This document shows positions 31,420-64,000 of a stretch of 64,000 nt of DNA, one piece after another (positions within the stretch are counted from its first letter, which is position 1; every line of letters starts with the position of its first letter). Position numbers and translations under genes: made by a program. This DNA comes from Acidimicrobiia bacterium (GTDB lineage Bacteria > Actinomycetota > Acidimicrobiia > Spongiisociales > UBA11373). Where the stretch lies: assembly GCA_040878325.1 (NCBI GenBank), contig JBBDMM010000006.1, positions 35,012 to 99,011 on the forward strand. Reading direction: 5' to 3'. Below the pieces are notes generated by a model. That model was not told the DNA's origin. It saw only the letters and a list, made by a program, of their open reading frames with translations, and made no database searches.

Positions 31420-31445
31420 CTACCCGCTACCCGCCACCCGCTTCC
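31420..31445. repeat. (CTACCCG)x3 heptamer repeat, intergenic
   Basis: ctacccgctacccgccacccg. Confidence 0.75.
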
Positions 31446-34599: not shown

Positions 34600-34630
34600 C
34601 GTATTGCGTATCGCGCATCGCGCATCGCGG
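34600..34630. repeat. (CGTATYG)x2(CGCATCG)x2 heptamer array
   Basis: cgtattgcgtatcgcgcatcgcgcatcgcgg. Confidence 0.8.
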
Positions 34631-48139: not shown

Positions 48140-49310
48140 CCCTCGAGCACGCCGGCCAGGATGTCGACGGCGTCCCAGACGTCGGTGAACGACACGTAGA
48201 GGGGGGCGAACCCGAAGCGCAGCAGGTCGGGAGGACGGACGTCTCCCTGCAGCCCTGCGGCCACCAGCCGCTCGTACACCCCTGACGCGTCGGGGTGGCG
48301 GAGCGACACCTGGCTCCCCCGCTTCTCGGAGTCACGAGGCGATGCGACCTCGAGCCCGAGCCGCTCGTCTACCAGGTCGATGAACAGCCCGGTGAGGGCG
48401 ATGCTCTTGGCCCGCACCGCGGCGATGTCGATGCCGTCGTAGGCGTCGAGGGCGGCGTCGAGGATCGACATCGAGACGATCGGCTGGGTGCCGGTGATGA
48501 ACCGGCGGATGCCGGGAGCGGGGCGATAGTCGGCTTCCATGAGGAACGGGTCGGCGTGACCGATCCAGCCGGGGATCGGGTCGCGGCTCGCTCAAGATGT
48601 GCCCCGTTGACGTACAGGTAGGCGGGCGCCCCCGGTCCGCCGTTGAGGTACTTGTAGGTGCATCCGACGGCGAGGTCGACGCCCCACCGGTCGAGTGAGA
48701 TCGGAAGCACCCCGGCGCTGTGGGAGAGATCCCAGATCGCCAGCGCCCCGGAGGCGTGGATCGTCTCGGTGATGGACCCCATGTCGACGATCTCGGCCGT
48801 ACGGAAGTCGACGTGGTTCATCACCACCGCCGCCACCTCCTCATCGAGGAGGTTGTCCACGGATTGGCCCCGGGGAATCACCCGGACCCGGCCTCCGATG
48901 AGGTGGGCGACGCTCGCGGCCACATAGCGGTCGGTGGGGAACGCCCCCTCCTCGATGACGACGGCGGTGCGGCCCGGTTGGAGGGTGGCCGCGGCCAGGA
49001 GCGCCTTGTAGAGGTTGGTGGTGGTGGTGTCGCACACCACCACCCGGCCGGGCTCTGCTCCGATCAGCCGGCCGATCCGGTCACCGAGCCGTAAAGGCAG
49101 CTCCCACCACCCCTCCTCCATCCAGCCCCGGATGAGCCGAAGGGACCACTGGTCGAGGATGGCGTCGGCCCGGTCGGGAACTCCGCGCGGCATCAACCCC
49201 AGGGAGTTTCCGTCCAGATACACGAGGCCATCGGTCACCACAAACCGGTTACGCGCCGCCGCCAGCGGGTCGGCGGCGTCGCGAACCTCGAACTCGGCGC
49301 GGGTCGTCAC
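48136..49310 (-). pseudogene. kynU: kynureninase with a single-nucleotide frameshift near 48591-48600
   Basis: The N-terminal 240 aa (LDGNSLG ... CTYKYLNGGPGAPAYLYV) are in the frame of ORF 48369-49310. The conserved continuation PIPGWIGHADPF-LMEADYRPAPGIRRFITGTQP...RFGFAPLYVSFTDVW is in the +1 frame (ORF 48136-48540). Confidence 0.75.
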
Positions 49311-49461
49311 CCTGGCACGCTAGCGAGAGGTGTCAGCCGACGGCCCGGCTGCCCACCTCCTGATCGATGAGCAAGATCGCCGAGGTGGTCACCACCCCCC
49401 ATCACCTCCTTTGGGCTCAACCGCGGTTAATTTGGCCGGTAGCACTCCCCGAAACGGACCC

Positions 49462-50667
49462 ATGAAGAGCACCGTTCTTCTCCTGACACTCGCCCTGGTC
49501 GCCGCCTCATGTGGCGGTACGACCGCCGACACCACCACTACCACCGAGGCGACAACCACCACCGCCATCACGGTGCCGGCGACCACCACCTCCACCGGAC
49601 CGACGACCACGACCACCACTCTGCCTCCGTCGCCGGTGCTGGCGACCGAGGGTGACGACAACGAGATCGTCGCCGCCTTCCAGTTCCTCCTCAACTGCGG
49701 GGGTTATGGGGAGCTGACGGTCGACGGCGAGTTCGGTGCGGGGACCACCACCGCGGTCACGGAGGCTCAGGAGGCGCTGGGATTCGACCCGACCGGCGAA
49801 CCGACGGAGAACTTCTTCATCGCCCTCAACCAGTTGTGTCCCCAGACCCGTGCCGTCGAATTCGGCGAGGACGAGATCGCGGTGCGAGTGTTCGGCCACA
49901 CCTCGGCGCTCGACCCGGAGAACTTCTCCATCCCGCTGATCTTCGGCAGCACGCTGATGGTGACACTGGTCTCCGGTGACGGCGCGATCGCCACGGTGTG
50001 GGATGCGCAAGGGACGCCCCTCGAGTCGGAGGACGGAACCACCTTCCTGATCGAGGAAACCGGTGACTACCGAATCGAGGTGAGCACCGCCGACGACCCG
50101 ACCGTGTTCACCATCGAAGTCGAGGTCACTTCGATCGCCGAGGCCGGCGAGTGGATCATCACCACCGACGGGATCTCCCACGATGACACCGAGTTCCTCC
50201 TCGGCACCGCCGCCGGGCCGATGATCACCAAGATCTTCGAATTCCTCGGCCACGGAGTGCGAAGCGACTTCGACGAGTTCGACACCGGATGGGACGCCGC
50301 CGGACAGGAAGGTTTCCGGGGGATCTTCATCGAAGGCCTCGCCTTCCTCTTCACCGGCCCCAACGCCGAGAACCCGGGGCGCCCGGAAGTCTTCGCCCGG
50401 GTGAGGTATGTCGGCCCCTCCTTCGACGCCGATGGCGAGCCCAGGCCGGCCGGGTTCGTCCAGACCCTGTCCGGAATCACGGTGGGCCACACGCTCGAAG
50501 ACCTGATCGACACCTACGGGTCGTCAGTGCGGTCCGGCAGCAACAGCGAAGAGCACTACTACCGCTACGGCGCCGCCGACGGTTCAGAAGTCTGCTTCTA
50601 CTTCGGCGAAGACGAGCCGGATGATGACGACCAGATCCTCGAGATCTCTACGGAGTGCCGGGGGTAG
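49462..50667 (+). CDS. secreted lipoprotein with Thr-rich linker and peptidoglycan-binding (PG_binding_1-like) domain
   Basis: MKSTVLLLTLALVAASCGG. TTTTTEATTTTA linker. EIVAAFQFLLNCGGYGELTVDGEFGAGTTTAVTEAQ resembles a PGBD. Confidence 0.6.
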   Translation: MKSTVLLLTLALVAASCGGTTADTTTTTEATTTTAITVPATTTSTGPTTTTTTLPPSPVLATEGDDNEIVAAFQFLLNCGGYGELTVDGEFGAGTTTAVTEAQEALGFDPTGEPTENFFIALNQLCPQTRAVEFGEDEIAVRVFGHTSALDPENFSIPLIFGSTLMVTLVSGDGAIATVWDAQGTPLESEDGTTFLIEETGDYRIEVSTADDPTVFTIEVEVTSIAEAGEWIITTDGISHDDTEFLLGTAAGPMITKIFEFLGHGVRSDFDEFDTGWDAAGQEGFRGIFIEGLAFLFTGPNAENPGRPEVFARVRYVGPSFDADGEPRPAGFVQTLSGITVGHTLEDLIDTYGSSVRSGSNSEEHYYRYGAADGSEVCFYFGEDEPDDDDQILEISTECRG

Positions 50668-50788
50668 GCGCGCGGAGCTAGCTGGTGGCGCCCGACCCAC
50701 CTTCGGAGCGCCACCGACCACGACCCGCGGCACGGAATTCTGTCGGTCGTGATGGGTAGTCTCTCCAGCGGTTCAACCGGGGGGAGAC

Positions 50789-53257
50789 TTGAGCGAAGCA
50801 TTCTGGGAGCAGGGCGATACGGTCGATCGTGTCCCCGTCCACATCAGCATGCGGATCATCGAGCTCTTTTCAGAGGGCTTGTACGCCAGTCCGAACAAGG
50901 CACTTGAGGAGTTGGTCGCTAACGCGTTCGATGCGGGGGCGACCAGGACTCACGTTGCACTCTCTGTGGACCTCTCGGCTGACGATGCGCTTATCGTCGT
51001 CATCGACAACGGCGTAGGCATGGACGCGGCCGGTCTGAAGAAGCACTGGATCATCGGTGAGAGCGACAAGCGCACGACAGCGGATTCTCGCAAACGAGCT
51101 CCGATCGGGAAATTCGGAATCGGGAAGCTCGCAACATTCGTACTTGCTAGTCGCCTGACACATATCTCAAAGGCTGGCGGGAAGTACTGGTCAACCAGCA
51201 TGGACTTCTCGACCCTCCCTACCGGGAAAGGGGCTGAGACCGACCAAGTCGACCTCGACCTCCGAGAGCTTACGCTTACCGAGGCGAAGGCTGCCGTCTC
51301 CCAAATTCTCGAGACCGCCGGGCTAGGCATGAAGAGCGTTCCCCTTTTCGGTCGTGGCGCGGACGAGTCGTGGACTGTCGCCGTTATGTCCGACCTGAAA
51401 CCGATGGCGACGGAGATCACCATCGGGCGCCTCGGCTGGGTGCTAAGAACTGGAATGCCGCTCCGCGATGATTTCGTGTTGGTGCTCAATGGCACCGAGT
51501 TGACACCAGCAAAGGGTTCGAAGCATCGGATCGCGCGCCTCAGGCTCGGGGATGACGTCAAGTCAGTCCCGAAACCGGCAACCGACGACTACGAAGTCTC
51601 GGTTGATAAGAAACGCGGAGCGGACGACGGGCGATTCGGCCTCGTGGGTGCTCAACTCGGGCGAGTTACCGGCTACCTCGAGGTTTACGAGAATCCCATT
51701 GATACTGGGAAGGCGTGGGAACGATCGAATGGCTTCTTTGTGTATGTGCGAGGACGGCTGATCAACGGCGCAGATCCGGGATTCGGACTCGACCGAAACC
51801 TGCTTCGACACGGTACGTTTTCTCGGATGCGAGCCGTCGTCCACATGGACCGCCTTGACGACGAATTGCGCTCCTCGCGCGAGTCTGTTCGCGAGGGACC
51901 CACCCTTTTCGAAGCCCGCCACTTCCTCCACGGACTCTTCAACCTCGCCCGCAACACCTTGACCGGTTTTGAGGAAGAGCATGACCCGAGTAGACGTGTC
52001 GGCGACCGATTCGCCGCGGGACCTGCAAGTCTGACAGTCGCGCCGATACTTCGACTAGCAGCCGCAGCGATCCGAGGAGATGCAGTGCCGCTTCTCCTTG
52101 AAGTCGCGCTGCCAGCTGGGGTCTCCGCAGATGACTTCATCACCGACTTGAACAGGGCGGCCGAGGAGGCCGGTGGAATCCTCCGGGGGACTTCGCTAAC
52201 GGACCTTGGCCCCAGATCGGGTATCGCTCGCCTCAACCTCAGCGAGGGATTACTTCAGATCAATCTGGCTCACCCTTTTGTTGCCAGCTTCGTAGATGAC
52301 TTCTCGGATCCAAAGAGGAGTCTCCCACTAGAGCTACTGGCGATGGCCGAAGTCGTGCTCGAAGCGCAACTTTTCGACCAAGGGATGTCGACCGCCGACG
52401 CCCGTGAAGTACTCCGACAAAGGGATGACACCCTACGTGTTCTTGCGAGAGAACACGCTGAGCCGAATGCGATCACGATTGCCCAAGAGCTCTTGGATAG
52501 CGTATCGGACAAGGCAGCGCTTGAGACGGCTGTAGTCGCCTGCTTCGACTCGCTCGGATTCGAGGCTGTCCATGTGGGTGGGAAGGAAAAGCCCGACGGG
52601 TACGCCGATGCCCACCTCGGGGTTGAGAGCGATCTCAGCAAGGCGGCCTATAGGGTCACACTCGAGGCGAAGAGCAAGGAGCGGCCCGGGGCGAAAGCCG
52701 CTTCGAAGGCAGTCGGGGTGTCAGCCATTGAACGCCACATGACCGACTTCGGGGCAAAACACTGTGTTGTCGTCGCTCCCGACTTCGAGAAGGGCGTATT
52801 GAGCAAGGAGATCACTGCGGTTCGCGAGAAGACCGGTAGGTCCATAACCCTGGTGCGAGCGATCGACCTAGCCCGCCTCGTGCGCTTGGCGCCTCGCAAG
52901 GGGATCAACCTCTCGGACCTCGAGGAGCTCTTCGAGTGTTCAACGTCTGATGAAGTGTCGGAGTTCGTAGACAGCATCGAGAAGCTGCCGGACCGCACGA
53001 ATACCTTCAGGACGATCCTCGAGGCAATCTGGCAGGAGCAACAGGAACAGCCGGACGCCGCGGTTCACTACTCGGCGCTTCGAGTAGCACTGCGGAAGTC
53101 GGCGAACATCAAACTGAGCGACGATGAAGTGAAGTCCGCGTGCATGGCGCTCTCGGCCATGGCGCCGACACACGTCTTCGCCCGTACCGATCGCGTGGAA
53201 CTAAGCATCCGACCCGATAAGGTTCTTGCCGCGATCGCCGCGTACATAGCAGCATGA
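50789..53257 (+). CDS. MORC-like GHKL ATPase fused to C-terminal Mrr-type PD-(D/E)xK restriction-endonuclease domain (TTG start)
   Basis: N-box ELVANAFDAGAT, G1 IDNGVGMD, G2 GKFGIGKLA, then a transducer-like middle domain. C-terminal KPDGYADAHLG ... YRVTLEAKSKE gives PD-x(n)-ExK. Locus GC is clearly lower than the rest of the window. Confidence 0.75.
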   Translation: MSEAFWEQGDTVDRVPVHISMRIIELFSEGLYASPNKALEELVANAFDAGATRTHVALSVDLSADDALIVVIDNGVGMDAAGLKKHWIIGESDKRTTADSRKRAPIGKFGIGKLATFVLASRLTHISKAGGKYWSTSMDFSTLPTGKGAETDQVDLDLRELTLTEAKAAVSQILETAGLGMKSVPLFGRGADESWTVAVMSDLKPMATEITIGRLGWVLRTGMPLRDDFVLVLNGTELTPAKGSKHRIARLRLGDDVKSVPKPATDDYEVSVDKKRGADDGRFGLVGAQLGRVTGYLEVYENPIDTGKAWERSNGFFVYVRGRLINGADPGFGLDRNLLRHGTFSRMRAVVHMDRLDDELRSSRESVREGPTLFEARHFLHGLFNLARNTLTGFEEEHDPSRRVGDRFAAGPASLTVAPILRLAAAAIRGDAVPLLLEVALPAGVSADDFITDLNRAAEEAGGILRGTSLTDLGPRSGIARLNLSEGLLQINLAHPFVASFVDDFSDPKRSLPLELLAMAEVVLEAQLFDQGMSTADAREVLRQRDDTLRVLAREHAEPNAITIAQELLDSVSDKAALETAVVACFDSLGFEAVHVGGKEKPDGYADAHLGVESDLSKAAYRVTLEAKSKERPGAKAASKAVGVSAIERHMTDFGAKHCVVVAPDFEKGVLSKEITAVREKTGRSITLVRAIDLARLVRLAPRKGINLSDLEELFECSTSDEVSEFVDSIEKLPDRTNTFRTILEAIWQEQQEQPDAAVHYSALRVALRKSANIKLSDDEVKSACMALSAMAPTHVFARTDRVELSIRPDKVLAAIAAYIAA

Positions 53258-54468
53258 CCTATCTGCACCCGTTTCCGGCGCGGATGGCCCCCGAATTGGC
53301 AGCGGCAGCCATCGACCACCTTGAAGGCCCCAGGCAGCGGGTCCTAGACCCGATGTGTGGCTCTGGAACGACACTGCTTGCAGCGCGCAGGGCTGGCCAC
53401 CATGCGATCGGTCTGGACCTTGATCCACACGCCGTGATGCTGTCGAAGGGCCTCCTGACGAGCTACGAATCGAACCTCCTCCGCGACGCCAGCGAAGAGG
53501 TCCTCCAACTCGCAAGAAGCATCAAAGGCCGGATTACGCAAGGGACCGCGTATCCCGAAAGCTCGGATTTCGCCACGCGCGAGTTTCTCCGGTATTGGTT
53601 CGACCCGGCGACGCGTATCCAACTCACAGCACTGATACGGGTAATCGACGAGCAGCCTCGCGACGAGCTTTGGAGGCTCCTACGAATCGCATTCTCGCGA
53701 ATGATCATCGTTAAAGAGAATGGCGTGTCACTGGCGATGGACGTCGCTCATAGTCGCCCGCATCGAACTTACGACAAGTCCCCAACTCACCCTTTTGACC
53801 TGTGGCCAGTCTCGATCGCGACGGTAGCGCGAGCCATCGAGGTATCCCGAGTCCCGGACGATCACCCGTTGGCGTCTGTCATGTTGGGCGACGCGCGGGC
53901 GACCGGCCTCCCCGACTCGTCGATCGATGCAATCGTCACCTCACCCCCATACCTCAACGGAATCGACTACATCCGGGCTTCCAAGTTTGCTCTCGTGTGG
54001 TTTGGGCACAACGTGGGTGAACTGCGCGAGTTGCGAGCGTCGTTGGTGGGAGCAGAGAGAGGACTGGCAGCCAGCGAACTCAGCGGCCTGGTCGCTGAGT
54101 TTGACGACGCCCATTGGTATCGCGAGCTCCCAAGTCGGCAACGGGGTCTGGTGCACCGGTACCTGGCGGATATGAGAAGCGTACTTGCAGAGTCGGCGAG
54201 GGTATTGAAGCTTGGGGCGACAGCCGTGCTCGTTGTTGGAGACTCAAGGCACCGGGGAGTCACAATCCCCAACAGCGAGATCCTTCAGCGTCTGGCGAGT
54301 CTTGCTGGCTTCAAGATCATCAAGAAAGTAGCGAGGCCCCTTCCGACGAAACACCGATACCTCCCACCGCCGCAGTCAACGGCGACGTCCGACCTGGATC
54401 GGCGACTGTCTTCCGAGTGGGTGCTCACTTTCAAGAAGACGAGTGGGTGCTCACCTTCAAGAAGATAG
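53254..54468 (+). CDS. DNA methyltransferase (amino-MTase, N6-adenine or N4-cytosine), translationally coupled (ATGA) to the GHKL-nuclease gene
   Basis: Motif X/I HPFPARMAPELAAAAI...VLDPMCGSGTT near the N-terminus and motif IV IVTSPPY about 200 aa downstream. Confidence 0.85.
   Translation: MTYLHPFPARMAPELAAAAIDHLEGPRQRVLDPMCGSGTTLLAARRAGHHAIGLDLDPHAVMLSKGLLTSYESNLLRDASEEVLQLARSIKGRITQGTAYPESSDFATREFLRYWFDPATRIQLTALIRVIDEQPRDELWRLLRIAFSRMIIVKENGVSLAMDVAHSRPHRTYDKSPTHPFDLWPVSIATVARAIEVSRVPDDHPLASVMLGDARATGLPDSSIDAIVTSPPYLNGIDYIRASKFALVWFGHNVGELRELRASLVGAERGLAASELSGLVAEFDDAHWYRELPSRQRGLVHRYLADMRSVLAESARVLKLGATAVLVVGDSRHRGVTIPNSEILQRLASLAGFKIIKKVARPLPTKHRYLPPPQSTATSDLDRRLSSEWVLTFKKTSGCSPSRR
54415..54466 (+). 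repeat. 26-bp imperfect tandem duplication (2 copies, 24/26 identical) spanning the MTase stop codon
   Basis: gagtgggtgctcactttcaagaagac | gagtgggtgctcaccttcaagaagat. Removing one copy puts the MTase in frame with the downstream kinase ORF. Confidence 0.9.
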
Positions 54469-54665
54469 GACGAGCCTTCAATCAAACAGCCCCGCTCTCC
54501 GACGCAGCGCAGGGGCTAGCCGATTCACGCTCTGGGCCTGCCGCACCATCCCGCACCATCAGGGTTGAAGTCACCACGTCGAAGACGCCACGAGGATGGC
54601 CACCTCGATTCGCGGTCGCGAAGTCTAGTGTCCCTCTCTATGCGACCGTTACCTGGGAGGCCAAG

Positions 54666-55454
54666 GTGGGTGCAGAGTTCGGTCCCCTGATTGCCGGCGG
54701 ACCCGATCGGGTCGTCCGGCGAGGCAAATACGTTCTTAGGAAAACGGGTCCCTGGACGCCGACGGTCCATGCCCTGTTGGCGCACTTCGAGCGCTTGGGA
54801 GTGCGGGGCGCGCCGCGCGCGCGAGGCCTTACGGCTGGTGGGTGTGAACGGGTCAGCTTCGTCGAAGGCACCACGATTGTCTGGCCCGAGAAGTGGCCGA
54901 GTGGGATGCAAAGCGACGAGTATCTGCGAGATGTGGCCCAGCTTGTCCGACTGCTGCACGACGCCAGCGAAACTTTCCGTCCCCCGAGCGATGCCATCTG
55001 GCAGGAGCAGCCGCTGACTCTGTCGCACGGTGACATTATCTGTCACAATGACCTCGGGCCTTGGAACACCGTTACGCGCGGGAACAGGCCAGTTGCCATA
55101 ATCGACTGGGACATGGCAGCTCCCGGCACGAGGGATTGGGACGTCGCCTTAGCTCTGTGGCACTGGGTGCCGCTATACGACGATAACGAAATACTCGAGT
55201 GGGGATGGGCGACAGTGCCTGATAGGCGGCACCGAATTGAGGTCTTCTCGGCTGCCTATGGGATCGAGACTCCTCGTGACCAACTTCTGAAGACCATAAG
55301 GAAGAGGCAAGTCGCGACTCTTCGCACTATTAGGTGGGCCCAGTCGAATCCGAACCTCCCGGGAGCAGACGTCTGGGTGGACTGCGTTCCCCCTCACGTG
55401 GTGCGTCGCCAGCTCAGGTGGCTCGACTCTAACGCTGAGACACTCCTCCCATAG
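54666..55454 (+). CDS. APH/ChoK-fold phosphotransferase (aminoglycoside-phosphotransferase-like kinase); GTG start tentative, frame open upstream to the repeat
   Basis: Catalytic loop ICHNDLGPWN (HxDxxxxN) and IDWDMAAPGTRDWD (D-W-D metal-binding segment). Confidence 0.7.
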   Translation: MGAEFGPLIAGGPDRVVRRGKYVLRKTGPWTPTVHALLAHFERLGVRGAPRARGLTAGGCERVSFVEGTTIVWPEKWPSGMQSDEYLRDVAQLVRLLHDASETFRPPSDAIWQEQPLTLSHGDIICHNDLGPWNTVTRGNRPVAIIDWDMAAPGTRDWDVALALWHWVPLYDDNEILEWGWATVPDRRHRIEVFSAAYGIETPRDQLLKTIRKRQVATLRTIRWAQSNPNLPGADVWVDCVPPHVVRRQLRWLDSNAETLLP

Positions 55455-55669
55455 TGCAAGGGCATGCTGCCGCCATCCTGTGGCGATGCGGTCCTGCAAG
55501 TTCTGACCAACGCTGAACGGCCGGCCCTTTCTCCCCGAATCCCATCAACGGGCACCGCTAACTTGGACGCACGAGCTACGAACTGATCCGCGCACTTACG
55601 CCGAGAACACTACCTCCGCGTGTCCTGATAGGACAGGAAGCTGGGAGCAAGAGGCCACCAAAAGGGGTT

Positions 55670-57061
55670 TCAATGTAGCCGCTCGCTGACCACTTTCAAC
55701 TGGGTAAACTCCTCCAACCCAAGTTGTCCATACTCAACGCCCATACCCGACGATTTCACGCCGCCGAACGGGACGTCATGAGAAAGTTCGCCATGAGTGT
55801 TTACCCACACTGTGCCGACCTTTAGGCGCGACGCGACCTTCTGTGCTAAGGCGCCGTTGCCCGTCCAAACCGATGCCCCGAGGCCATACGAGGTGGCGTT
55901 CGCCCTTGATACGGCCTCATCGAGGTCAACAAACTCCATCACCGGAAGTGCGGGTCCGAACTGCTCAGTGACCTCTAGCGCTGTGTTTGTGGATGGCTCA
56001 AAGACAATAGTCGGGCGGTAGAAGAACCCGGGCGCGTCGATACGATATCCACCCGCCAGCACTTGACCCCCGGCACTGCGAGCGGTCGCCACTAGCGCGT
56101 CGACCCTGAGGACTTGTCCCTCGATCGTCAGTGGACCCATTTGAGTCCGTGCATCAAGGCCATTGCCTACGATGGTCGCGTCGGCCCGCATCGCCAGACG
56201 GTCGGCCAAACTGCGAGCAATTGATTTGTGGGCATACACTCGCTTCACAGCCGCGCAGAATTGCCCGGCATTGACAAAGGCTGCTGCGAACAGCGCCTCG
56301 GCGACACCGTCGATGTCGACATCTGGAAAGACGATCGCAGCATCATTACCTCCAAGCTCAAGGATCGCCTTCTTCAGATCCCGAGCTGCCGAGACCGCTG
56401 CCGACCGCCCAGCACTTACAGATCCAGTGAGCGACACCATGTCACAGAACCCATGGCTCACAAGACGCTCGCCGAGGGTGTCGCCACCGCTCAGTACGTT
56501 CAGGACACCTGCGGGTAGAAGAGGTGCCAAGGTCTCGCCCATCAATAGCGGCGATAAGGGAGCATGAGGAGATGGCTTTAGCACGACAGTATTGCCTGCG
56601 AGCAAGGCAGGGGCGATTTTGACTACAGCCAGAATGATTGGGTAGTTCCACGGTGTAATCGCACCTACGACCCCCAAGGGCACTCGAAGCATCCGCACGT
56701 ATGAGTCGGGCGTCTTCCGAGCAATTGCAGCTTCCAATTCGAGTCCAGCAATCCAGCCAAACCACTGCGCTGCCAACGTCACCTCGTCCATGGCCTCTCT
56801 CAGTGGCTTACCATTCTCCCTTGTCAGGACTGTGGCAACTTCATCAGCTCGAGCAGCTAGTCCTTCTCCGAGTTCGACTAGTACTGAGCGTCGCTCGTCG
56901 ATTGGCTGCGCAGCCCAGGCGGGCTGTGATGACCGGGCAGAGCGCAGGGCTTCGTCAAGCACTGCCTCGCTAGCCAGCGGCGCTTCTGCGAACGTCTCCC
57001 CGGTTGCCGGGTCGACCACGGGCAGACCCGTACCGCCAACGGACTTGCCGCCGACCGTCAT
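55670..57061 (-). CDS. aldehyde dehydrogenase family protein (low-GC)
   Basis: ALDH signatures ELGGNDA, catalytic FVNAGQFCAAVKRVY, EPTIV... About 463 aa. Confidence 0.85.
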   Translation of the reverse strand: MTVGGKSVGGTGLPVVDPATGETFAEAPLASEAVLDEALRSARSSQPAWAAQPIDERRSVLVELGEGLAARADEVATVLTRENGKPLREAMDEVTLAAQWFGWIAGLELEAAIARKTPDSYVRMLRVPLGVVGAITPWNYPIILAVVKIAPALLAGNTVVLKPSPHAPLSPLLMGETLAPLLPAGVLNVLSGGDTLGERLVSHGFCDMVSLTGSVSAGRSAAVSAARDLKKAILELGGNDAAIVFPDVDIDGVAEALFAAAFVNAGQFCAAVKRVYAHKSIARSLADRLAMRADATIVGNGLDARTQMGPLTIEGQVLRVDALVATARSAGGQVLAGGYRIDAPGFFYRPTIVFEPSTNTALEVTEQFGPALPVMEFVDLDEAVSRANATSYGLGASVWTGNGALAQKVASRLKVGTVWVNTHGELSHDVPFGGVKSSGMGVEYGQLGLEEFTQLKVVSERLH

Positions 57062-57813
57062 ACCTAGAACTAGGTCGAAGCCCACGCCTATGCCCTCCGC
57101 CGCTGCGAGTGTCCCTGAGATTCTCTTCGAACGATGCTACGCGATCCGGCCACCTGGTTGATCGCTGACCGACGGATGGCCGACCTCGAGCGAGCGCACG
57201 CAGGTGAGTGGTTGGGTACCTTGAATGAGGTGGCAATCAGTCTTGTGATTGCGCCCAAGACCGCGTCCATGCGCCCCCGGCGCGTCGGGCGGGAGAACGA
57301 CAGGGAATGCGGCGGGGAGCGGCGTGCCCTGACGTTGGCCCGGAGGCCATGGCCAATACTGGTAGCGTTTTCGGTGATGCGAGGAAGCTCCACGCAAATC
57401 ACCAAACAGGGGACGGACGCCGAGTCGGACTTGGCACGCCGTCGGGATGTGCAGCGAGGCACCAACTTCTGCCGGGCGGTGAAAGCCGCTCTCTGGGTGA
57501 GGCAGCTAGACGAAACAATGCTGCGTGGATCGCGGAAGGAGACCTTCCCGAGGGATGCAACCTGGAGTGCACGGCGGGCCACGGTTGCAGAATCCTCAAC
57601 CCCGACATCCGAAAAGAGTCTGTTCGGAGTAGTCGGTTGTACAAGTTGGCTTTCCCGGGCACCAATCTCGGCGGTGCCGACAGAGATGGCGGCACGTACA
57701 CGTCACCCGCCTTCCGTAACGGCGTCGTTCGATGCGATGCCGTTCTGGACCGAGAGCCGCCCGGGGCTGAGGGTCCGAGCGGAGTGGGCGCTCGATGCCG
57801 GATTGGCCGCCCC

Positions 57814-59286
57814 GTGACGGCCACAGCGTTCCAACGGCTCCAAGGACTGGCTGCCAGCCGGCCCGGCGCAACTGCGATAACTGCCGGCTCGACGCCGGGG
57901 CAGACCATGACCTTTCGAGATCTGGCCGCCACCACCGATAGAATGCGGGACGGGCTCTTTGGTGCCGGAGTGCGAGATGGCGATGCGGTCGTGCTGGTCA
58001 TGGACCGGTCAGCGCAAGCCATCTCTGCATTGCTAGCCATCATGGCATCAGGCATGCGGCCCCTCGCCTTGGACGCCGCGTTCGCCGCTGGGACCGCGGA
58101 CCTCCTCGGAGGAGCCGCCGGGCCGCTCAGGCCCCAGTTAGCGATCGTCCCAGACACTTCGTCCGAGCCAGCCGACCCGGGCCATGTGCGGTACTCGCAG
58201 CTGTCAGCAGGATCGAGGGGCCGCGCCCCGGAGGCCGGCGGCGAGACGATCCTGTACCAACTCACTAGCGGCTCGACGGGCCCTCCGCGTGTGGCCATAA
58301 TCCCCGAGGGAGCTCTGGTGCGCGGCGGCGACCTGTACGCGTCCGCCATCCGAGCGGAGCCGCACGATCAGATCGCCGTCGCGGTGCCTCTCGCCCACTC
58401 CTACGGGTTGGTCGGTTCGCTTTTTACGATGCTCGCGACCGGTGCAGGCATTGTGATTGTCGACGAACCAGGCCCAAGCGCTCTGCTTAGAGCAATCGAC
58501 GACCTTGGCGCCACGGTGCTCTTCGCGGCGCCGATGCTGTATCAGTTACTCGCTGCCACTGGGGAGCGGTCGCGGCCCGGCCTGCGAGCGGCCGTGTCGT
58601 CTGGGGCGACCATGTCCGAAGACGTTGCCGCAGGCGCTCGAGCGAGCCTGGGGACACCGGTGGTCCAGCTGTACGGCACGACGGAGACCGGGTTGATTGC
58701 ATGCCAGCCGCTCGACTCAGCCGTGGGGCGCGACGTGGGGCCGCCCGCGCCTGGCGTCGAGATCGAGCTGGTTACCGACCACCAAACCGGACGCCGACTC
58801 CACGTCCGCACGTCGACGATGTTCCGCGGCTATGTGGGCTACGACCGAGCGGCCGCCCGGTTGCGGCTGGATGGCTTCTATGACACCGGGGACCGGGTAC
58901 TCGTGGAGCCTTCTGGTTCCCTCGTGGTCCTGCCGCGCCAGGACACCTTCATCAATGTGTCCGGAAACAAGGTCAATAGGGCCCGCATCGAGGAGGTGTT
59001 GCGCTCCCAACCTGGCGTAGCGGACGCAATCGCATACGCCGTTCCGGCACCGTTCGGGGCCGGGCAGCAGGCATGGGCCGCGGTCGAACTGATCGACCCA
59101 GCGTGTGCCGATGAAGCGCTCCTTACAGCCGGGTGCCGCGATCGCCTCGCCGCCTTTGAGGTGCCCACAGCGATCTGGATACTCCCGAGCCTGCCCCGCA
59201 CCTACACGGGAAAGGTCGACGTGAACCGTCTGCCCGCGCCCGGCGCGAGCCAGATCACATCCGAGCCGCTGGGGAAGTCGCCGTGA
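57814..59286 (+). CDS. AMP-dependent synthetase/ligase (adenylating enzyme); GTG start inferred
   Basis: A3 motif LTSGSTGPPRV, A5 YGTTETG, A8-like FRGYVGYD, A10 PRTYTGKVD. Confidence 0.8.
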   Translation: MTATAFQRLQGLAASRPGATAITAGSTPGQTMTFRDLAATTDRMRDGLFGAGVRDGDAVVLVMDRSAQAISALLAIMASGMRPLALDAAFAAGTADLLGGAAGPLRPQLAIVPDTSSEPADPGHVRYSQLSAGSRGRAPEAGGETILYQLTSGSTGPPRVAIIPEGALVRGGDLYASAIRAEPHDQIAVAVPLAHSYGLVGSLFTMLATGAGIVIVDEPGPSALLRAIDDLGATVLFAAPMLYQLLAATGERSRPGLRAAVSSGATMSEDVAAGARASLGTPVVQLYGTTETGLIACQPLDSAVGRDVGPPAPGVEIELVTDHQTGRRLHVRTSTMFRGYVGYDRAAARLRLDGFYDTGDRVLVEPSGSLVVLPRQDTFINVSGNKVNRARIEEVLRSQPGVADAIAYAVPAPFGAGQQAWAAVELIDPACADEALLTAGCRDRLAAFEVPTAIWILPSLPRTYTGKVDVNRLPAPGASQITSEPLGKSP

Positions 59287-60440
59287 GCAAGGGCCGCATC
59301 TCCCTCGCCGACCCGGACGTGGGGAAAGCCGAAGCGCGGGCCGTGTACAAAGTGGTCTCGTCCGGGTGGATCTCGGCAGGCCGAATCACTGCGGGAATGG
59401 AAGAGGATCTGGCCTTGAAGATCGGGGCCCCCGGAGTCGTGCTGGTCAGCAGTGGCACCGCAGCTCTCCACCTGGCGCTACTCGTCGCCGGTGTCGGGCC
59501 GGGCGACGAGGTCCTGGTGCCGTCGATGTCGTTTGTCGCCAGCGCGTCCACGGTCGTGATGGTCGGAGCGACCCCCCGGTTCGTCGACGTGGCAGGCCTC
59601 GCCGAGCCGAACCTCGATCCGACGGCGGTGGCCGAGGCCATCACCGAGCGCACCAGGGCGGTTCTCGTCACGCATCTCGCCGGGTTCCCGGCCCGGGTCG
59701 ACGCCCTGCGCAACATCACCGACGAGGCCGGCGTCGAATTGATAGAGGATTGCGCACATGCGCCGCTCGTGTCCTACGGCGGCCGCCAACTCGGCACGTT
59801 CGGGCGCCTCGGCGTACTCAGCTTCCACACGACAAAGTCAATCAGCATGGGAGAGGGGGGAGCGATCGTGTGTCGAGACACCAGCGACGCTGACCATGCC
59901 CGTCTGCTGCGAAACCACGGCCTCCAGCGCGATGACGCCACTTTCGCATACGACGTCGCAACCCTGGGCTTCAACTACAGGCCCAGCGAGGTCGCCGCTG
60001 CCGTCGGCAGGGTCCAGCTGGACCGGCTTGCCGACGACCGGGACCACCGCAGAGAGTTACGCACGCTCTACGAGTCGCGTCTCGGCGTCCTTCCAGGAGT
60101 CAACCTGCCCTTCGCCGGCTGGCAGGGCGACTCCGCCCACCATCTGCTCCCAGTAGTCCTACCACCCTACGTGGACCGCGATGCCGTCCGTCGCCATCTC
60201 CTAGCCGTCGGCATAGAGAGTGGTGTTCATTACCCACCGATCCACGAATTAACCCAATACCGGCAGGCTCCTCAGGAACCACTCGCCGCCACGGTGGCGT
60301 ACGGCAGGCAGCACCTCACCCTACCCCTCCATCGCCGGGTGACACGTTCCGACGTGGCCACCGTCGCTGACGCCCTCGGTGTCGCCCTGAAGCTTGAGTC
60401 CGGTGGCCGCGAAGCCCCGGTGCGGGGTCCAGCGGTATGA
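59283..60440 (+). CDS. DegT/DnrJ/EryC1/StrS family sugar aminotransferase (PLP-dependent)
   Basis: Collinear with DegT family. Lys in SFHTTKSISMGEGG. GTGA overlap with the ligase gene. Confidence 0.85.
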   Translation: MSKGRISLADPDVGKAEARAVYKVVSSGWISAGRITAGMEEDLALKIGAPGVVLVSSGTAALHLALLVAGVGPGDEVLVPSMSFVASASTVVMVGATPRFVDVAGLAEPNLDPTAVAEAITERTRAVLVTHLAGFPARVDALRNITDEAGVELIEDCAHAPLVSYGGRQLGTFGRLGVLSFHTTKSISMGEGGAIVCRDTSDADHARLLRNHGLQRDDATFAYDVATLGFNYRPSEVAAAVGRVQLDRLADDRDHRRELRTLYESRLGVLPGVNLPFAGWQGDSAHHLLPVVLPPYVDRDAVRRHLLAVGIESGVHYPPIHELTQYRQAPQEPLAATVAYGRQHLTLPLHRRVTRSDVATVADALGVALKLESGGREAPVRGPAV

Positions 60441-60464
60441 TTTGCCAGAACACCACGCAGGCAG

Positions 60465-61271
60465 GTGCCAATGTCCGGGCCAATCGAGGTTACGTCAAGA
60501 GAAGGAGTCCGCTCGGAGTTGGGGGAACGCGGCTTCGCCTTCGTGGACGCCGCCCGCTACCACGTGCCGCCGTCTCTCCAGCCATCACTCGCGGAGTTGG
60601 CGGGTGCCTTCGACCGGCTTGAGCCGGACGCCTATCTCCGCGACGGTGCTCGCTTCCGGCAGCGCCGGTACGGGCGCTTCTTGCTGGGTCACGAGGGGTG
60701 GCTGCAAGACCTCCCGACTGCCCCCTACTTCCAAACAGCCGAGCACAACTCGTACGCTGGGGGCATCCCGCGCCGGATCGCCGATCTCGAACCAGCGACG
60801 AGACGCAACGAAATGCTCGCCCGCTTGATCCGCTTCGACGCATCGGTCTTCGAGACCCAGATCCAAGGGCCATTCGATCACTGGCGGGTTGAGGTGCACC
60901 TGTTTCGGGTCTGGGCCCGCTGGGACGAGCCGGGCCTGCCCACGCCCGAAGGCGTGCATCGCGACGGGAACGACTTCTTCGCCGTGCACCTCCTGCGTCG
61001 GGAAGCGGTGCGGGGCGGCGAGACGACCGTCTACGACCCCAGCTCACACCCTCTCCGGACACGGACCCTTCGCGAGCCTCTCGACACGCTCCTGGTCAAC
61101 GACCGCGAGGTGCTGCACGGCGTGAGCCCAATCGTCCCAGCGGACGACCGGAAGCCCGGCCACCGCGACGTTGCGGTCATCGACTTCTTTGTGATCCGGG
61201 ACCCACGCCGACTTCGATCGGGACTGGCAACCGATCCGACGGCACAGGTACCCACGAGTCATGCGCAGTGA
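60465..61271 (+). CDS. 2OG-Fe(II) dioxygenase family protein (PF10014-like)
   Basis: HxD in GVHRDGNDFFAVHLL and a distal His in VLHGVSP. About 268 aa, typical of this family. Confidence 0.5.
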   Translation: MPMSGPIEVTSREGVRSELGERGFAFVDAARYHVPPSLQPSLAELAGAFDRLEPDAYLRDGARFRQRRYGRFLLGHEGWLQDLPTAPYFQTAEHNSYAGGIPRRIADLEPATRRNEMLARLIRFDASVFETQIQGPFDHWRVEVHLFRVWARWDEPGLPTPEGVHRDGNDFFAVHLLRREAVRGGETTVYDPSSHPLRTRTLREPLDTLLVNDREVLHGVSPIVPADDRKPGHRDVAVIDFFVIRDPRRLRSGLATDPTAQVPTSHAQ

Positions 61272-62590
61272 GAGGACTGCGCGACGACCAAGGGGGCGCA
61301 AGTGCCAACTCCTCGCCTGACGCGCTCGTGGTCGGCCTCGGATACGCGGGGCTCGCCTTCACGGCGGCGCTCCTCGACGCAGGCCTCAGAGTCGCGGGGC
61401 TGGATATCGACGCTGAGCTTGTCGGCCGGCTCCAGGAGGGCAGGGAAGGACACGAGCCTGGCGTGTCCCGAGCGCTTGAGAGCGGAAGGGGGCGGCTTGC
61501 CCTGGACACCTCTCTCCCGGACAGTCCGCCGCCCGTGGTCGTCGTTTGCGTCGGGACCCCTTTTGACCGCGCCCGCGGTGTGCCCGACCTCTCCGACCTC
61601 CACTCGGCAATAGACGTGCTCGCACCGAGGCTAACGCCGGAGCACCTGGTGGTACTGCGGTCGACGCTACCTATCGGCGGATCCGACGCCATCGGAGGTC
61701 GACTCGAGGCCGCGGCTGGCGTTGCGCCGCTCCTGGCCTACTGCCCTGATCGAAGCATTCAGGGAACCGCCGTCGCCGAGATCCGGAACCTGCCGCAAGT
61801 AATCGGTGGTTCCTCTCCGGCCGCCGTAACCGCCGCGACACGCTTTTTCGCGCGACTGACCCCGTCAGTGTTGCCGATGTCCTCGCTTCGTGCTGCCGAG
61901 TTCGTCAAGCTCGCCAACAACAGCCACACCGACGTCCTCTACGCGTTCGGGAACGAGATGGCCTTCGCCGCAGAGGGTCTCGGCCTGGACGTGGGCGAGA
62001 TCCTGAACGCAACCAACCGCGACTACCCGCGACCCGACCTGGCTGGCCCGGGATGGGTGGGAGGAAGCTGTCTCACGAAGGATCCCCTCGCCTTCGGCTG
62101 GAGCGCCCAGGAGGCGGGGGTGCAGCTGACGCTGGTCCCTACGGCGCGAGCAATCAACGAGCAGCTCGCAACTAGGGCGGCCGACTTCGTCACGAGCCGG
62201 TTGGGCAACCTGAACCGCGGCGGCACCGTGCTTCTCGCCGGAGTCGCCTACAAGGGCCGGCCCGAGACCGATGACACTCGCGGGGGTGCCGCCGCGGCCA
62301 TCAAGGCCGTGATGGCCGACGCCCCGTGGTCCTTCCTGGGTCACGACTTCGTCGTTCCGCCGCTGCGGCTCCAAGCGCTTGGCCTTGTACCCGTCCCGCT
62401 TGAGGAAGGCGTCGCCAAGGCGGACGCCGTCATCTTCTGTAACGACCACCCACGCTACGCGGAACGACTTGACGTCCGCGACGCCAGCGAGTGGCTGGTG
62501 GGCAAGCCCGTGTACGACGTGTGGGGAGTGGTTCCCGACGGGCTGACCGCCCGCCTCGGCAGCGACTACCGAAGGCTCGGCCATGGCTAA
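61268..62590 (+). CDS. nucleotide-sugar dehydrogenase (UDP-glucose/GDP-mannose dehydrogenase family)
   Basis: ALVVGLGYAGL Rossmann. Catalytic GGSCLTKD. C-terminal UDP-binding AYKG...DDTR. Confidence 0.85.
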   Translation: MRGLRDDQGGASANSSPDALVVGLGYAGLAFTAALLDAGLRVAGLDIDAELVGRLQEGREGHEPGVSRALESGRGRLALDTSLPDSPPPVVVVCVGTPFDRARGVPDLSDLHSAIDVLAPRLTPEHLVVLRSTLPIGGSDAIGGRLEAAAGVAPLLAYCPDRSIQGTAVAEIRNLPQVIGGSSPAAVTAATRFFARLTPSVLPMSSLRAAEFVKLANNSHTDVLYAFGNEMAFAAEGLGLDVGEILNATNRDYPRPDLAGPGWVGGSCLTKDPLAFGWSAQEAGVQLTLVPTARAINEQLATRAADFVTSRLGNLNRGGTVLLAGVAYKGRPETDDTRGGAAAAIKAVMADAPWSFLGHDFVVPPLRLQALGLVPVPLEEGVAKADAVIFCNDHPRYAERLDVRDASEWLVGKPVYDVWGVVPDGLTARLGSDYRRLGHG

Positions 62591-63551
62591 GCCGGTACTG
62601 GTGACCGGAGGCGCCGGGTTCATCGGCCTCCACCTCGTCGACCGCCTCGTCGCAGAGGGTGCCGAGGTCGTAGTCGTGGACGACTTCCGGAGAGGTCGCC
62701 AGGATCGCCTCTTCGAGGCGGTAGCGGCCCCGTGCCGGGTCGTTGAGGCGGACCTAGCCGACCGCCACTCGCTCGCCCCGCTTGGCGAGTTCGGCGACGT
62801 CTACCACCTGGCCGCCTCGGTCGGCGCCGCGCTCGTCACCTGGAACCCCGCGGAGGTCCTGCGCAACAACGTGTTGTCGACGGTGCACGTCCTTGACCAC
62901 GCCGCGGCAGGCGGCGCTGACCGGGTCTGGTTAGCCTCGACGAGCGAGGTATACGCGGCGTCGGTGGAGCGCGGCTTGGCCTCGGTCCCGACGGCGGAGA
63001 CCGTCCCCGTTCTGTTCGAAGCGAGGTATCAGCCGCGCTCGGCGTACGCGGTCAGCAAGCATGTCGGCGAGCAGCTGGCTCACGCCTTCCGCCATCAGCA
63101 CGGCCTCCAGGTGGTGGCTTGCCGTTTTCACAACGTCTACGGGCCGCGTATGGGCCACGACCACGTCATCCCCCAGCTCGTAGCCCGGATCCTGGACCGG
63201 GTGGATCCGTTCCCCGTGTACGGCGACCAGCGACGGTCATACTGCTATGTCGACGATGCGCTCAACATGCTCCTCCAGCTCCGCGACGTTCCGAACCCGC
63301 CTGTTGTAGTAAACATCGGCAACGGCGACGAAGAGATCTCCGCTGCGGATCTCGCTCGCCGCTTGTTTGTGGTTGCAGGGTGGTCGGCATCGGTCGAGGT
63401 GCACCCGGCGCCGCCCGGGTCGCCCGATCGGCGCTGCCCCGACATCGGGCTTGCTGCAGAGCTGACGGGCCTTAGGCCGGCCTGGCCCCTCGACAAGGGT
63501 CTCGAAGAGACATTCGCCTGGTATCGGCACGAAGCGGGAGCGCCTGCATGA
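62583..63551 (+). CDS. NAD-dependent epimerase/dehydratase (extended SDR)
   Basis: VLVTGGAGFIGLHLVDRL and YAVSKHVGE (YxxxK). Confidence 0.85.
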   Translation: MAKPVLVTGGAGFIGLHLVDRLVAEGAEVVVVDDFRRGRQDRLFEAVAAPCRVVEADLADRHSLAPLGEFGDVYHLAASVGAALVTWNPAEVLRNNVLSTVHVLDHAAAGGADRVWLASTSEVYAASVERGLASVPTAETVPVLFEARYQPRSAYAVSKHVGEQLAHAFRHQHGLQVVACRFHNVYGPRMGHDHVIPQLVARILDRVDPFPVYGDQRRSYCYVDDALNMLLQLRDVPNPPVVVNIGNGDEEISAADLARRLFVVAGWSASVEVHPAPPGSPDRRCPDIGLAAELTGLRPAWPLDKGLEETFAWYRHEAGAPA

Positions 63552-64000
63552 AGGTGCTCATCGGCACCGCGGGCTACGGGACCATCCGGTCGGGCGCCGA
63601 CCGGATGGTCGGCGACTTGGCACGCTTTCTTGCGGCGCGAGGGAACAGGGTTCTCGTCGCCTGCCGCAACGGAACAGTACTGCACTTGGACCTCGAGGCC
63701 ACCGCGGTCGAGTGGGTCGAGGGCACGGCCGTCGACTGCGCTGAGGCCGGTCTAGCGTGGCAGCCAGACGTCTGGCATCTGCTCGACCTCGCCCACGCCC
63801 GCTTCCTCGATGCCATGTTGGAGGTCGGACGGTCGTTGGTAGTGCCGGTCGTGGTGACGCCTGCATCGGATCCGGCAGTGTGGGACGACGAGAACGCCGC
63901 GTGCCGGGTCCTCGGCCGCGCCGATCGGGTGCTGGCGCTCACCCGGGCGGAGGCGGCAGCCGTCAGCCAGCTGTGCCAACCGGCCTCGGAGCCGCAGATC
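63548..64000 (+). CDS. glycosyltransferase (GT4-like N-terminal domain), 3' partial at window end; ATGA overlap with the upstream gene
   Basis: MKVLIGTAGYGTIRSGADRMVGDLARFLAARGNRVLV is a typical GT-B N-terminus. Absent from the ORF track because no stop lies in the window. Confidence 0.5.
   Translation, partial: MKVLIGTAGYGTIRSGADRMVGDLARFLAARGNRVLVACRNGTVLHLDLEATAVEWVEGTAVDCAEAGLAWQPDVWHLLDLAHARFLDAMLEVGRSLVVPVVVTPASDPAVWDDENAACRVLGRADRVLALTRAEAAAVSQLCQPASEPQI

Follow-up and report, generated by a model that had tools for sequence, protein, structure and literature searches.

A 26-bp tandem repeat, probably slippage-derived, closes a restriction-modification methyltransferase gene next to a separate kinase gene

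Introduction

In a genome of an Acidimicrobiia bacterium (GenBank assembly GCA_040878325.1, contig JBBDMM010000006.1), a DNA methyltransferase gene is followed on the same strand by a gene for a kinase of the APH family, and a 26-bp tandem repeat lies at the very end of the first gene. We analysed 64,000 nucleotides of this contig, hereafter the window. The locus raises the question of what the repeat has done to the two genes. An initial annotation made from the sequence had described them as an otherwise in-frame methyltransferase-kinase fusion split by the duplication, and had considered a reversible switch between fused and separate enzymes, an inactivating or separating mutation and an assembly artefact. 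Here, we examine the repeat, the two genes and the spacer between them, and weigh the possible origins of the arrangement.

Results

The methyltransferase gene is the second gene of a predicted two-gene restriction-modification (R-M) module (Table 1), which is carried on a low-G+C island at 50.5-57.3 kb of the window. The stop codon of the restriction gene overlaps the methyltransferase start (ATGA). The restriction protein matches Pfam HATPase_c_3 (E=1.5e-18) and, in its N-terminal part only, PADLOC REase_II and the BbrUII/HgiDII family of NCBIfam; its putative nuclease region is marked by a PDG...LEAKSK motif read in the translation and by a faint FokI_cleav_dom record. As in the window, a GHKL restriction gene lies immediately upstream of the methyltransferase gene on the same strand at 51 of 80 related loci. 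The homologs encoded there align within residues 1-822 of the window protein at approximately 27-48% identity, mostly 41-48%, and the alignment is near full length at about 40 of the 51 loci, the rest being partial or cut by contig ends.

R-M modules consisting of a GHKL-ATPase nuclease and a circularly permuted N6_N4-type methyltransferase are widespread across phyla, and the architecture was already described in 2008. In the paraMORC3-type modules (Iyer, Abhiman & Aravind 2008, PMC2292703), a protein with a GHKL ATPase and a restriction-endonuclease fold is encoded adjacent to a DNA methylase, and their sporadic distribution points to lateral spread between phyla. The window protein resembles them in having an N-terminal GHKL ATPase and a putative C-terminal nuclease (E-D-ExK type) next to a methylase gene, an assignment made by architecture only. 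Its ATPase region also matches the BbrUII/HgiDII model (NCBIfam NF050001, E=2.2e-17), but the score, 62.9 bits, is below the 550 required and only residues 18-144 match, which places the protein outside that equivalog. In the PADLOC REase_II/MTase_II scheme, the window methyltransferase matches the Type II methyltransferase models. Nothing convincing was found for island boundaries (att-like direct repeats, tRNA) in 49.5-58.5 kb, and the two tRNA calls of the window are far from the island.

Table 1. Features of the methyltransferase-kinase locus and its upstream partner gene (window coordinates)
Feature	Position	Strand	Basis or remark
Restriction subunit: GHKL (HATPase_c_3) ATPase with putative C-terminal PD-ExK-type nuclease region	50789..53257	+	Pfam, PADLOC, NCBIfam, motif
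DNA methyltransferase gene, 404 aa	53254..54468	+	Pfam N6_N4_Mtase, PADLOC MTase_II, homologs, invariant motifs, AlphaFold model
Copy 1 of 26-bp unit	54414..54439	+	CGAGTGGGTGCTCACTTTCAAGAAGA; methyltransferase frame reads EWVLTFKK, conserved terminal motif of the methyltransferase family
Copy 2 of 26-bp unit	54440..54465	+	CGAGTGGGTGCTCACCTTCAAGAAGA; shifted frame reads the 9-residue tail TSGCSPSRR
TAG stop of two-copy methyltransferase	54466..54468	+	Displaced from the frame by 1 nt in one-copy sequence (AAG AAG A TAG)
Putative non-coding spacer, ~198 nt	54469..54665	+	G+C by codon position; no homologs
Perfect 10-bp tandem duplication within spacer	54541-54560	+	CCGCACCATC x2
Shine-Dalgarno-like GGGAGG	54655..54660	+	6 nt 5' of kinase GTG; read from sequence
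APH-family phosphotransferase gene, 262 aa, GTG start	54666..55454	+	Pfam APH; homolog N-termini

The methyltransferase scores 55.8 bits with Pfam N6_N4_Mtase (cut-off 26.7). Both the SAM-binding motif I and the catalytic motif IV of a Type II R-M DNA methyltransferase are present. Motif I reads DPMCGSGT (residues 32-39), with D32, M34, G36, S37, G38, and T39 invariant in 16 homologs, and motif IV reads TSPPY (T229-S230-P231-P232-Y233), which is invariant as well. In the searched collections the closest non-self match is 47% identical, and a scan of species-representative genomes returned methyltransferase loci of 41-46% identity only. The 119 homologs among the matches listed all stand alone, at 399-440 aa, with no kinase fused to any of them. 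Their sequences share a terminal motif, E-x-[IVLM]-[ILVM]-x-[FLIVM]-x-x (the E-V-I-L-T-F-K-K type), which occurs in 118 of the 120 listed methyltransferases, self included. At most three residues follow it in 100 of the 118 listed motif-bearing proteins, and tails of 4-17 residues also occur; two homologs have a tail of nine, the length found in the window.

In the AlphaFold model (pLDDT 83, pTM 0.85), the last strand of the methyltransferase comprises residues 385-395, residues 396-404 are all coil, and pLDDT falls below 50 only for residues 401-404. According to this model, the fold is complete at K395 in the one-copy or the two-copy state, and the 9-residue tail is predicted to be disordered and is probably tolerated. 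With the conserved C-terminal strand intact, the model gives no footing to the earlier suggestion of an inactivating mutation. The enzyme is likely to be active, since its full-length restriction partner is intact. Structural comparison added little on the C-terminus: Foldseek searches of the PDB with the model returned generic class-I methyltransferase matches only (TM ~0.3-0.35), which are uninformative in this respect, and a PDB sequence search matched the motif-I region alone. The last codons of the gene before the TAG are two rare AGA codons.

The two adjacent 26-nt copies that had been reported are present, in a best register one base to the left of the one first given. They are identical at 25 of 26 positions, the sole difference being T/C at unit position 16, and the array scores 97 in Tandem Repeats Finder (TRF). 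Searching the whole window for the unit with up to three mismatches recovered these two copies and no third, and the same unit was matched in 0 of 100 dinucleotide-preserving shuffles; an exact scan of JGI metagenome contigs gave no match to the unit. Copy 1 joins copy 2 at TTCAAGAAGA/CGAGTGGGTG (AAGAAGA/CGAGTGG). No microhomology was found at the borders of the duplication (GTCTTC/CGAGTG ... AGAAGA/TAGGAC), so a specific slippage template cannot be named. The Logan assembly of run SRR27977662, which is independent, has both copies, letter for letter, well inside one of its contigs: SRR27977662_48935 (14,554 bp) corresponds to window positions 49043-63596 with a single mismatch, at the far end of the contig. 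The 26-bp duplication is real and non-random, and an assembly artefact is unlikely because the independent assembly has both copies.

As annotated initially, the second copy shifts the methyltransferase frame. The open reading frame ends ...LSSEWVLTFKK-TSGCSPSRR at the TAG directly after copy 2, which predicts the C-terminal peptide ...FKKTSGCSPSRR. Deleting one copy would make copy 1 abut TAGGACGAG directly (the junction being a single copy joined to TAGGACGAGCC), and the methyltransferase frame then runs without a stop into the kinase, yielding an ORF of 724 aa; this part of the annotation was also correct. The kinase frame, which is -1 relative to the methyltransferase frame, had been described as open exactly to the repeat. 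It is in fact open back to at least 54114, approximately 300 nt 5' of the repeat and within the methyltransferase gene. A frame of 198 nt was open by chance in 17-39% of trials, and multiplying by 1/3 for the frame match gives a coincidence probability of approximately 6-13%. We infer that chance, given the open frames of G+C-rich DNA, accounts for the in-frame link to the kinase in the one-copy sequence, and that the link is no trace of a fusion enzyme. The proposal that the duplication splits the two ORFs is sound at the level of reading frames; what finds no support is the further step to a fusion as the natural state, or to a switch. Long open frames are common in DNA of 66% G+C.

The spacer between the two genes does not resemble coding sequence. 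Across the three codon positions its G+C content is.62/.67/.61, whereas the genes on either side both have.65/.48/.69. It matches no protein family, homolog or Rfam entry, no structured RNA was detected in 54300-54800 (Rfam, E<=1), and neither a promoter-like nor a terminator-like site was found in it on the + strand. The spacer carries a 10-bp tandem duplication of its own, which is frame-shifting: without it, the one-copy methyltransferase is out of frame with the kinase. When both duplications are collapsed, the methyltransferase stops at TGA 54688-54690 as an unfused protein of 466 aa.

The kinase scores 46.4 bits with Pfam APH (cut-off 23.2). It has the catalytic loop HxDxxxxN and the metal-binding D (CHNDLGPWN and IDWD segments), and in an alignment of 12 sequences D195, N200, D213, and D215 do not vary, with H193 conserved in at least 90%. 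The closest match in the searched collections is 50% identical. Most of its homologs stand alone and measure ~220-300 aa, with extremes of 182 and 437; those at the upper end are fusions with NUDIX, GNAT or HTH domains, and a methyltransferase domain is found in 0 of 105 matches. The N-termini of 11 aligned homologs coincide with GTG 54666, and the only other start codons in the kinase frame lie inside the repeat, where no Shine-Dalgarno sequence precedes them. One gene caller uses such a GTG within the repeat and over-extends the kinase to 345 aa. The kinase is probably translated from its own Shine-Dalgarno sequence and GTG 54666. It gave no PADLOC or NCBIfam match as a defence-system component, and it adjoins the module at 0 of the 80 related methyltransferase loci. 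By these sequence comparisons, it appears to be a separate gene, unrelated to the R-M module.

Discussion

We consider it probable that a slippage-type duplication occurred at the 3' end of the R-M methyltransferase gene, leaving the fold intact beside a separate kinase, with neither a split fusion nor a switch involved. The 26 bp encoding the last methyltransferase residues (EWVLTFKK, the final beta-strand) would have been tandemly duplicated by a replication-slippage-type error. In the resulting two-copy sequence, copy 1 is read in frame and completes the conserved fold at K395, and copy 2 is read out of frame as TSGCSPSRR, right after which the TAG follows; the kinase would initiate independently at GTG 54666. 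On this reading, the change is an ordinary mutation that has neither broken up a fusion enzyme nor created a switch. Its main value is a caution: because long stretches of G+C-rich genomes lack stops, neighbouring genes in them can resemble "interrupted fusions". It is also a clean example of how a small tandem duplication at a 3' end can provide the stop of a gene along with a short tail that does no harm.

The order of events is less clear-cut. In the reconstructed one-copy ancestor, the methyltransferase frame has no stop ahead of that of the kinase, so every history must include another event that was not observed. Tentatively, a frameshift or a loss of the stop (AAG AAG TAG to AAG AAG A TAG) may have come first, and the +26 duplication would then have restored termination, with a net gain of 27 nt. 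In agreement with this order, the TAG lies exactly 1 nt past the KK codons; among the 118 listed motif-bearing proteins, 29 stop directly after the motif. The "A TAG" spacing favours compensation weakly, since a stop that is out of frame at +1 from the motif is present in 5 of 80 relatives as well. Alternatively, the duplication would have come first, and the old stop, by then non-coding, would have decayed later. Intragenic second-site suppression of a frameshift (+1 then -1) is known from classical genetics. Compensation at the window locus would be of this kind, a +1 change before the stop being followed by a +26 duplication (net +27) that brings the original TAG into use again, with the difference that the first event is hypothetical here. 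The duplication may in that case have rescued the R-M methyltransferase, whose loss would leave the host unprotected against the restriction enzyme it makes.

R-M methyltransferases are frequent targets of phase variation, and a reversible duplication/collapse switch would specify a separate methyltransferase and kinase with two copies and the 724-aa polypeptide with one, toggling altering methylation and/or kinase output in a subpopulation. We regard such a switch as quite improbable. The one-copy arithmetic does give a continuous 724-aa ORF, but the repeat lies 3' of a complete catalytic fold, so the methyltransferase is not turned off, and the kinase, which probably initiates at a codon of its own, has no relation to the module and occurs at none of the 80 related loci. 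Moreover, the spacer is not coding-like, both assemblies read straight through with two copies, and the one-copy (fused) protein is absent from a collection of 5.8 billion proteins. With only two imperfect copies, collapse is plausible, whereas the same 26 bp would very seldom be duplicated anew. In phasevarions, many copies of 1-7-nt units at the 5' end or in mid-gene switch a methyltransferase on and off. The window locus is similar in that a repeat in an R-M methyltransferase gene sets the reading frame by its copy number, but it has two imperfect 26-nt copies at the extreme 3' end, and a hypermutable tract of many perfect units is absent, the two copies (25/26) being found in the same number in two assemblies. 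Excisable tandem duplications within ORFs are a known mechanism of phase variation; in the pneumococcal gene cap3A, as far as the account in PMC11163986 (Waite et al. 2001) goes, a tandem duplication inactivates the gene and reversion by precise excision was observed. The window shares with that account of cap3A a potentially excisable tandem duplication inside a coding region, with a length that is not a multiple of 3. Unlike the duplication described there, it follows a complete fold and inactivates nothing, and two assemblies agree on its copy number. The switch once proposed for this locus is hard to reconcile with these observations. A low-frequency slippage toggle, whose one-copy state would yield either the 724-aa methyltransferase-spacer-kinase polypeptide or a methyltransferase that a long extension impairs, is very unlikely. 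If true, it would imply a subpopulation with altered methylation/restriction, and R-M phase variation via a long two-copy repeat at the 3' end.

The possibility of an assembly or consensus artefact, in which the true genome has one copy and the second stems from mis-joined contigs or collapsed strain variants, arises from the source, a metagenome-assembled genome, and from the single SNP between the copies, which is what strain variants would look like. We give it very little credence. The Logan contig (14.5 kb) comes from a separate pipeline and is identical, with two copies in mid-contig; a de Bruijn assembler would need junction k-mers that a one-copy genome could not provide; and a one-copy methyltransferase would be stopless, unlike every homolog. 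The agreement of two assemblies on two copies leaves this suggestion of the initial annotation improbable.

If a working methyltransferase-kinase fusion had existed ancestrally and the duplication had broken it up recently, this would account for a one-copy sequence that is in frame and stop-free through the kinase. When each copy is read as EWVLTFKK, the one base at which they differ is silent (ACT/ACC, Thr), but one synonymous difference has no statistical weight. No fused homolog was found among 2,400 methyltransferase matches or 105 kinase matches, and when the fused 724-aa sequence was used as the query, the best matches were stand-alone methyltransferases of 399-440 aa only, with no methyltransferase-APH fusion ranked. 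The kinase fusions that do exist are with NUDIX, GNAT or HTH domains, not methyltransferases. Of the 118 listed methyltransferases with the motif, 100 finish with FKK and at most three further residues, at or just after the motif of copy 1, and the aligned kinase homologs start at GTG 54666. Neither homologs nor a codon-position signal in G+C were found for the intervening spacer, and its 10-bp duplication would itself shift the frame. The related loci, with no kinase at any of the 80, speak against a fusion as the natural state. On these comparisons, the ancestral-fusion reading appears largely refuted, and we consider it highly unlikely.

Programmed -1 ribosomal frameshifting in or near the repeat, which would produce some methyltransferase-kinase fusion from the two-copy sequence, would fit the kinase frame being -1 to the methyltransferase frame and open from 54114 onward, and the two rare AGA codons preceding the TAG, but it has next to no likelihood, as 54400-54468, on inspection, lacks an X XXY YYZ slippery heptamer, the Rfam search gave no element, the arrangement is kept in 0 of 80 loci, and tandem rare Arg codons favour +1 shifts, not -1.

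A 26-bp tandem duplication lies at the 3' end of the MTase gene

The DNA methyltransferase (MTase) gene of a restriction-modification (R-M) module ends in a 26-nt unit that occurs twice in direct succession, as is visible on reading the sequence within 53400-56400. Tandem Repeats Finder (TRF) reports the array at 54414-54465 with a period of 26, 2.0 copies, 96% matches and a score of 97. In this register, 25 of 26 positions are identical between the copies; the register of the initial annotation, shifted one base to the right, gives only 24 of 26. With up to 3 mismatches allowed, copies 1 and 2 are the sole matches in the whole window, with no third copy, and none of 100 dinucleotide-preserving shuffles contained a match to the unit. 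The two copies initially described are thus confirmed.

Features around the duplication (window coordinates)
Feature	Position	Length	Sequence or model match
GHKL ATPase / restriction gene	50789-53257	822 aa	HATPase_c_3, E=1.5e-18
MTase	53254-54468	404 aa	N6_N4_Mtase, 55.8 bits (cut-off 26.7); PADLOC MTase_II
Copy 1	54414-54439	26 bp	CGAGTGGGTGCTCACTTTCAAGAAGA
Copy 2	54440-54465	26 bp	CGAGTGGGTGCTCACCTTCAAGAAGA
Spacer	54469-54665		
10-bp tandem duplication (perfect)	54541-54560	2 x 10 bp	CCGCACCATC x2
APH-family phosphotransferase (kinase), predicted start GTG 54666	54666-55454	262 aa	APH, 46.4 bits (cut-off 23.2)

Among the listed proteins, self included, 118 of 120 terminate in E-x-[IVLM]-[ILVM]-x-[FLIVM]-x-x (commonest form EVILTFKK), indicating that copy 1 encodes the natural C-terminus of the MTase family. 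The conserved protein is complete with copy 1. As the initial annotation stated, copy 2 is read frame-shifted, giving the C-terminus ...LSSEWVLTFKK-TSGCSPSRR, and the TAG directly after copy 2 (54466-54468) terminates translation. The motif is followed by 0-3 residues in 100 of the 118 listed proteins; tails of 4-17 are also found, and two listed homologs share the nine-residue length. In the AlphaFold model (pLDDT 83, pTM 0.85), the last β-strand comprises residues 385-395, and residues 396-404 form a coil with confidence below 50 at 401-404. We infer a harmless tail and an active MTase from the restriction partner, which retains its full length and aligns with its homologs almost end to end; an inactive MTase would leave the host exposed to its own restriction enzyme.

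Origin of the duplication

The array is best read as a tandem duplication of replication-slippage type at the very 3' end of the MTase gene. Reconstructed with one copy, the sequence (TTC AAG AAG ATA GGA ...) has no MTase stop, so a second event is needed, and we considered two histories of two events each. An ancestor ending in AAG AAG TAG, like the 29 of 118 listed motif-bearing proteins that have no tail, might have undergone a +1 change that moved TAG into another frame, a shift that the +26 duplication would then have reversed (net +27 nt). Alternatively, the duplication would be the older event, in a gene whose nearby stop later decayed in DNA turned non-coding. TAG lies exactly 1 nt past the KK codons, which speaks for the compensating duplication, but weakly, since in 5 of 80 relatives a stop also stands out of frame at this position; this history is given less than even odds. 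Protein, genome and metagenome searches found no relative close enough to order the events.

A reversible switch between fused and separate enzymes, as initially suggested, has a precedent in the pneumococcal cap3A duplications (Waite et al. 2001, as summarised in PMC11163986). Such a switch is improbable here, with merely two imperfect copies, placed past the complete MTase fold, a kinase unrelated to the R-M module and a one-copy allele nowhere on record. An assembly artefact is also unlikely. The MTase protein is recorded twice, in the NCBI metagenome-assembled genome ("Acidimicrobiia bacterium") and in Logan, an independent assembly of run SRR27977662. Logan contig SRR27977662_48935 (14,554 bp) differs from window 49043-63596 by a single base, at the contig's far end, and holds both copies mid-contig; the two pipelines agree on a two-copy sequence whose junction k-mers are not obtainable from a one-copy genome. 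The feature is real and its biology ordinary: both the small 3'-end tandem duplication and the GHKL-type R-M module beside an unrelated kinase are of kinds already known.

The MTase and the kinase are probably separate proteins

The initial annotation read the duplication as splitting an MTase-kinase fusion. Deleting one copy in silico does yield an uninterrupted 724-aa ORF running into the kinase; the kinase frame, described as open exactly to the repeat, in fact extends without a stop at least as far upstream as 54114. When the 724-aa protein was searched against 5.8 billion proteins, the best matches were the window's own 404-aa MTase and then stand-alone MTases of 399-440 aa (at most 47% identity), and no match covered both halves. 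By tblastn, kinase and spacer occur in 0 of 80 related MTase loci. An ancestral functional fusion is contradicted by these homologs and is highly unlikely. Programmed -1 frameshifting is very unlikely, with no slippery site in 54400-54468, no RNA element and no conservation in related loci.

The spacer matches no family, homolog or Rfam entry, and its codon-position G+C (.62/.67/.61) differs from the.65/.48/.69 of both flanking genes. Its 10-bp duplication lies ~75 nt downstream of the 26-bp one, placing two frame-changing tandem duplications inside ~150 bp. With two 26-bp copies, the MTase has 404 aa at either one or two 10-bp copies; with one, it is fused (724 aa) at two 10-bp copies and ends unfused at TGA 54688-54690 (466 aa) at one. 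An in-frame "fusion" thus also needs the spacer to carry a frame-shifting indel of its own. A stop-free 198-nt frame occurs in 17% of spacer shuffles, 28% of island frames and 39% of window frames; taking 1/3 as the chance that the frames match, such a coincidence would arise with ~6-13% probability.

The kinase conserves HxDxxxxN and IDWD. A kinase-plus-spacer query retrieved 105 proteins, mostly ~220-300 aa (range 182-437) and with alignments confined to its final 38-77%, the window's own 345-aa call aside; fusions among them involve NUDIX, GNAT or HTH partners, never an MTase. The N-termini of 11 aligned homologs lie no more than a few columns from the GTG 54666 valine, and GGGAGG lies 6 nt 5' of this codon. 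The sole other in-frame start codons (54417 and 54447) are within the repeat and lack a Shine-Dalgarno sequence. Both the GGGAGG site and the homolog N-termini point to GTG 54666 as the true start and to the 345-aa call as a probable annotation over-extension. That recorded call (54417-55454; 5375-6412 in L001, the window's own locus) begins with a GTG that belongs to copy 1 and overlaps the MTase by 52 nt.

The upstream R-M module

The MTase ATG overlaps the ATPase-gene stop (ATGA), and motifs DPMxGSGT and TSPPY are invariant in MTase homologs. Restriction-enzyme models match the 822-aa ORF over its GHKL ATPase domain; its translation contains a PD-ExK-like segment (PDG...LEAKSK) close to the C-terminus, and a FokI-cleavage-domain record is faint. 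Of the PADLOC models, only the generic Type II ones, REase_II and MTase_II, match the pair, REase_II over the ATPase region only, and no curated NCBIfam cut-off is reached. In 51 of the 80 related loci (L002-L081; MTase at ~6001-7200 in most), the GHKL gene again immediately precedes the MTase on the same strand, with ~41-48% identity across Proteobacteria, Acidobacteriota, Planctomycetota, Chloroflexota, Nitrospirota, Verrucomicrobiota and other phyla. The two genes form a conserved and widely transferred R-M module whose architecture suggests the GHKL/paraMORC type of Iyer et al. 2008 (PMC2292703). Together with the kinase and an aldehyde dehydrogenase gene (55670-57085, minus strand), they occupy a low-G+C island at ~50.5-57.3 kb (59-61% vs 67-73% in the flanks), whose flanks show no tRNA or clear direct repeats.

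Other repeats and tRNAs in the window

TRF also found many heptamer arrays of varied units (2-5.4 copies each), at 8946-9018, 14882-14971, 18713-18838, 22951-23132, 24900-24991, 25820-25946, 26469-26565, 27266-27293, 31063-31086, 31419-31442 and 34606-34629. Examples are GGCAGGT x5.4, CTCCCGC x5, GCGATTG x4.9, CGCAATT x3.9 and GCGGGAG x4.6; CTCCCGC (14882) is the reverse complement of GCGGGAG (24960). One intergenic gap often holds several arrays, as at 18713-18838 (three, in ORF gap 18612-18867). The arrays resemble the heptamer repeats known from cyanobacteria, but the host here is an Acidimicrobiia MAG of 66% G+C. A 55-56-bp tandem repeat at 25914-26039 (2.2-2.3 copies, 91-94% matches, TRF score ~215), ~330 bp upstream of tRNA-Gly(CCC) (26370-26441), contains in each unit the heptamer sub-repeats CTGGAGA and CGGCCAG and the G+C-rich palindrome GGCGGCCGAAGGCCGCC. 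ARAGORN called a tRNA-Glu(CTC) at 17560-17662 (minus strand) that overlaps large ORFs; its length of 103 nt is unusual among bacterial tRNAs, which are shorter, and may reflect an insertion or a false call. An imperfect, ACC/CCG-rich 24-bp repeat at 49525-49619 (3.9 copies, 74% matches), within a PG_binding_1-domain gene, probably encodes a Thr/Pro-rich linker.
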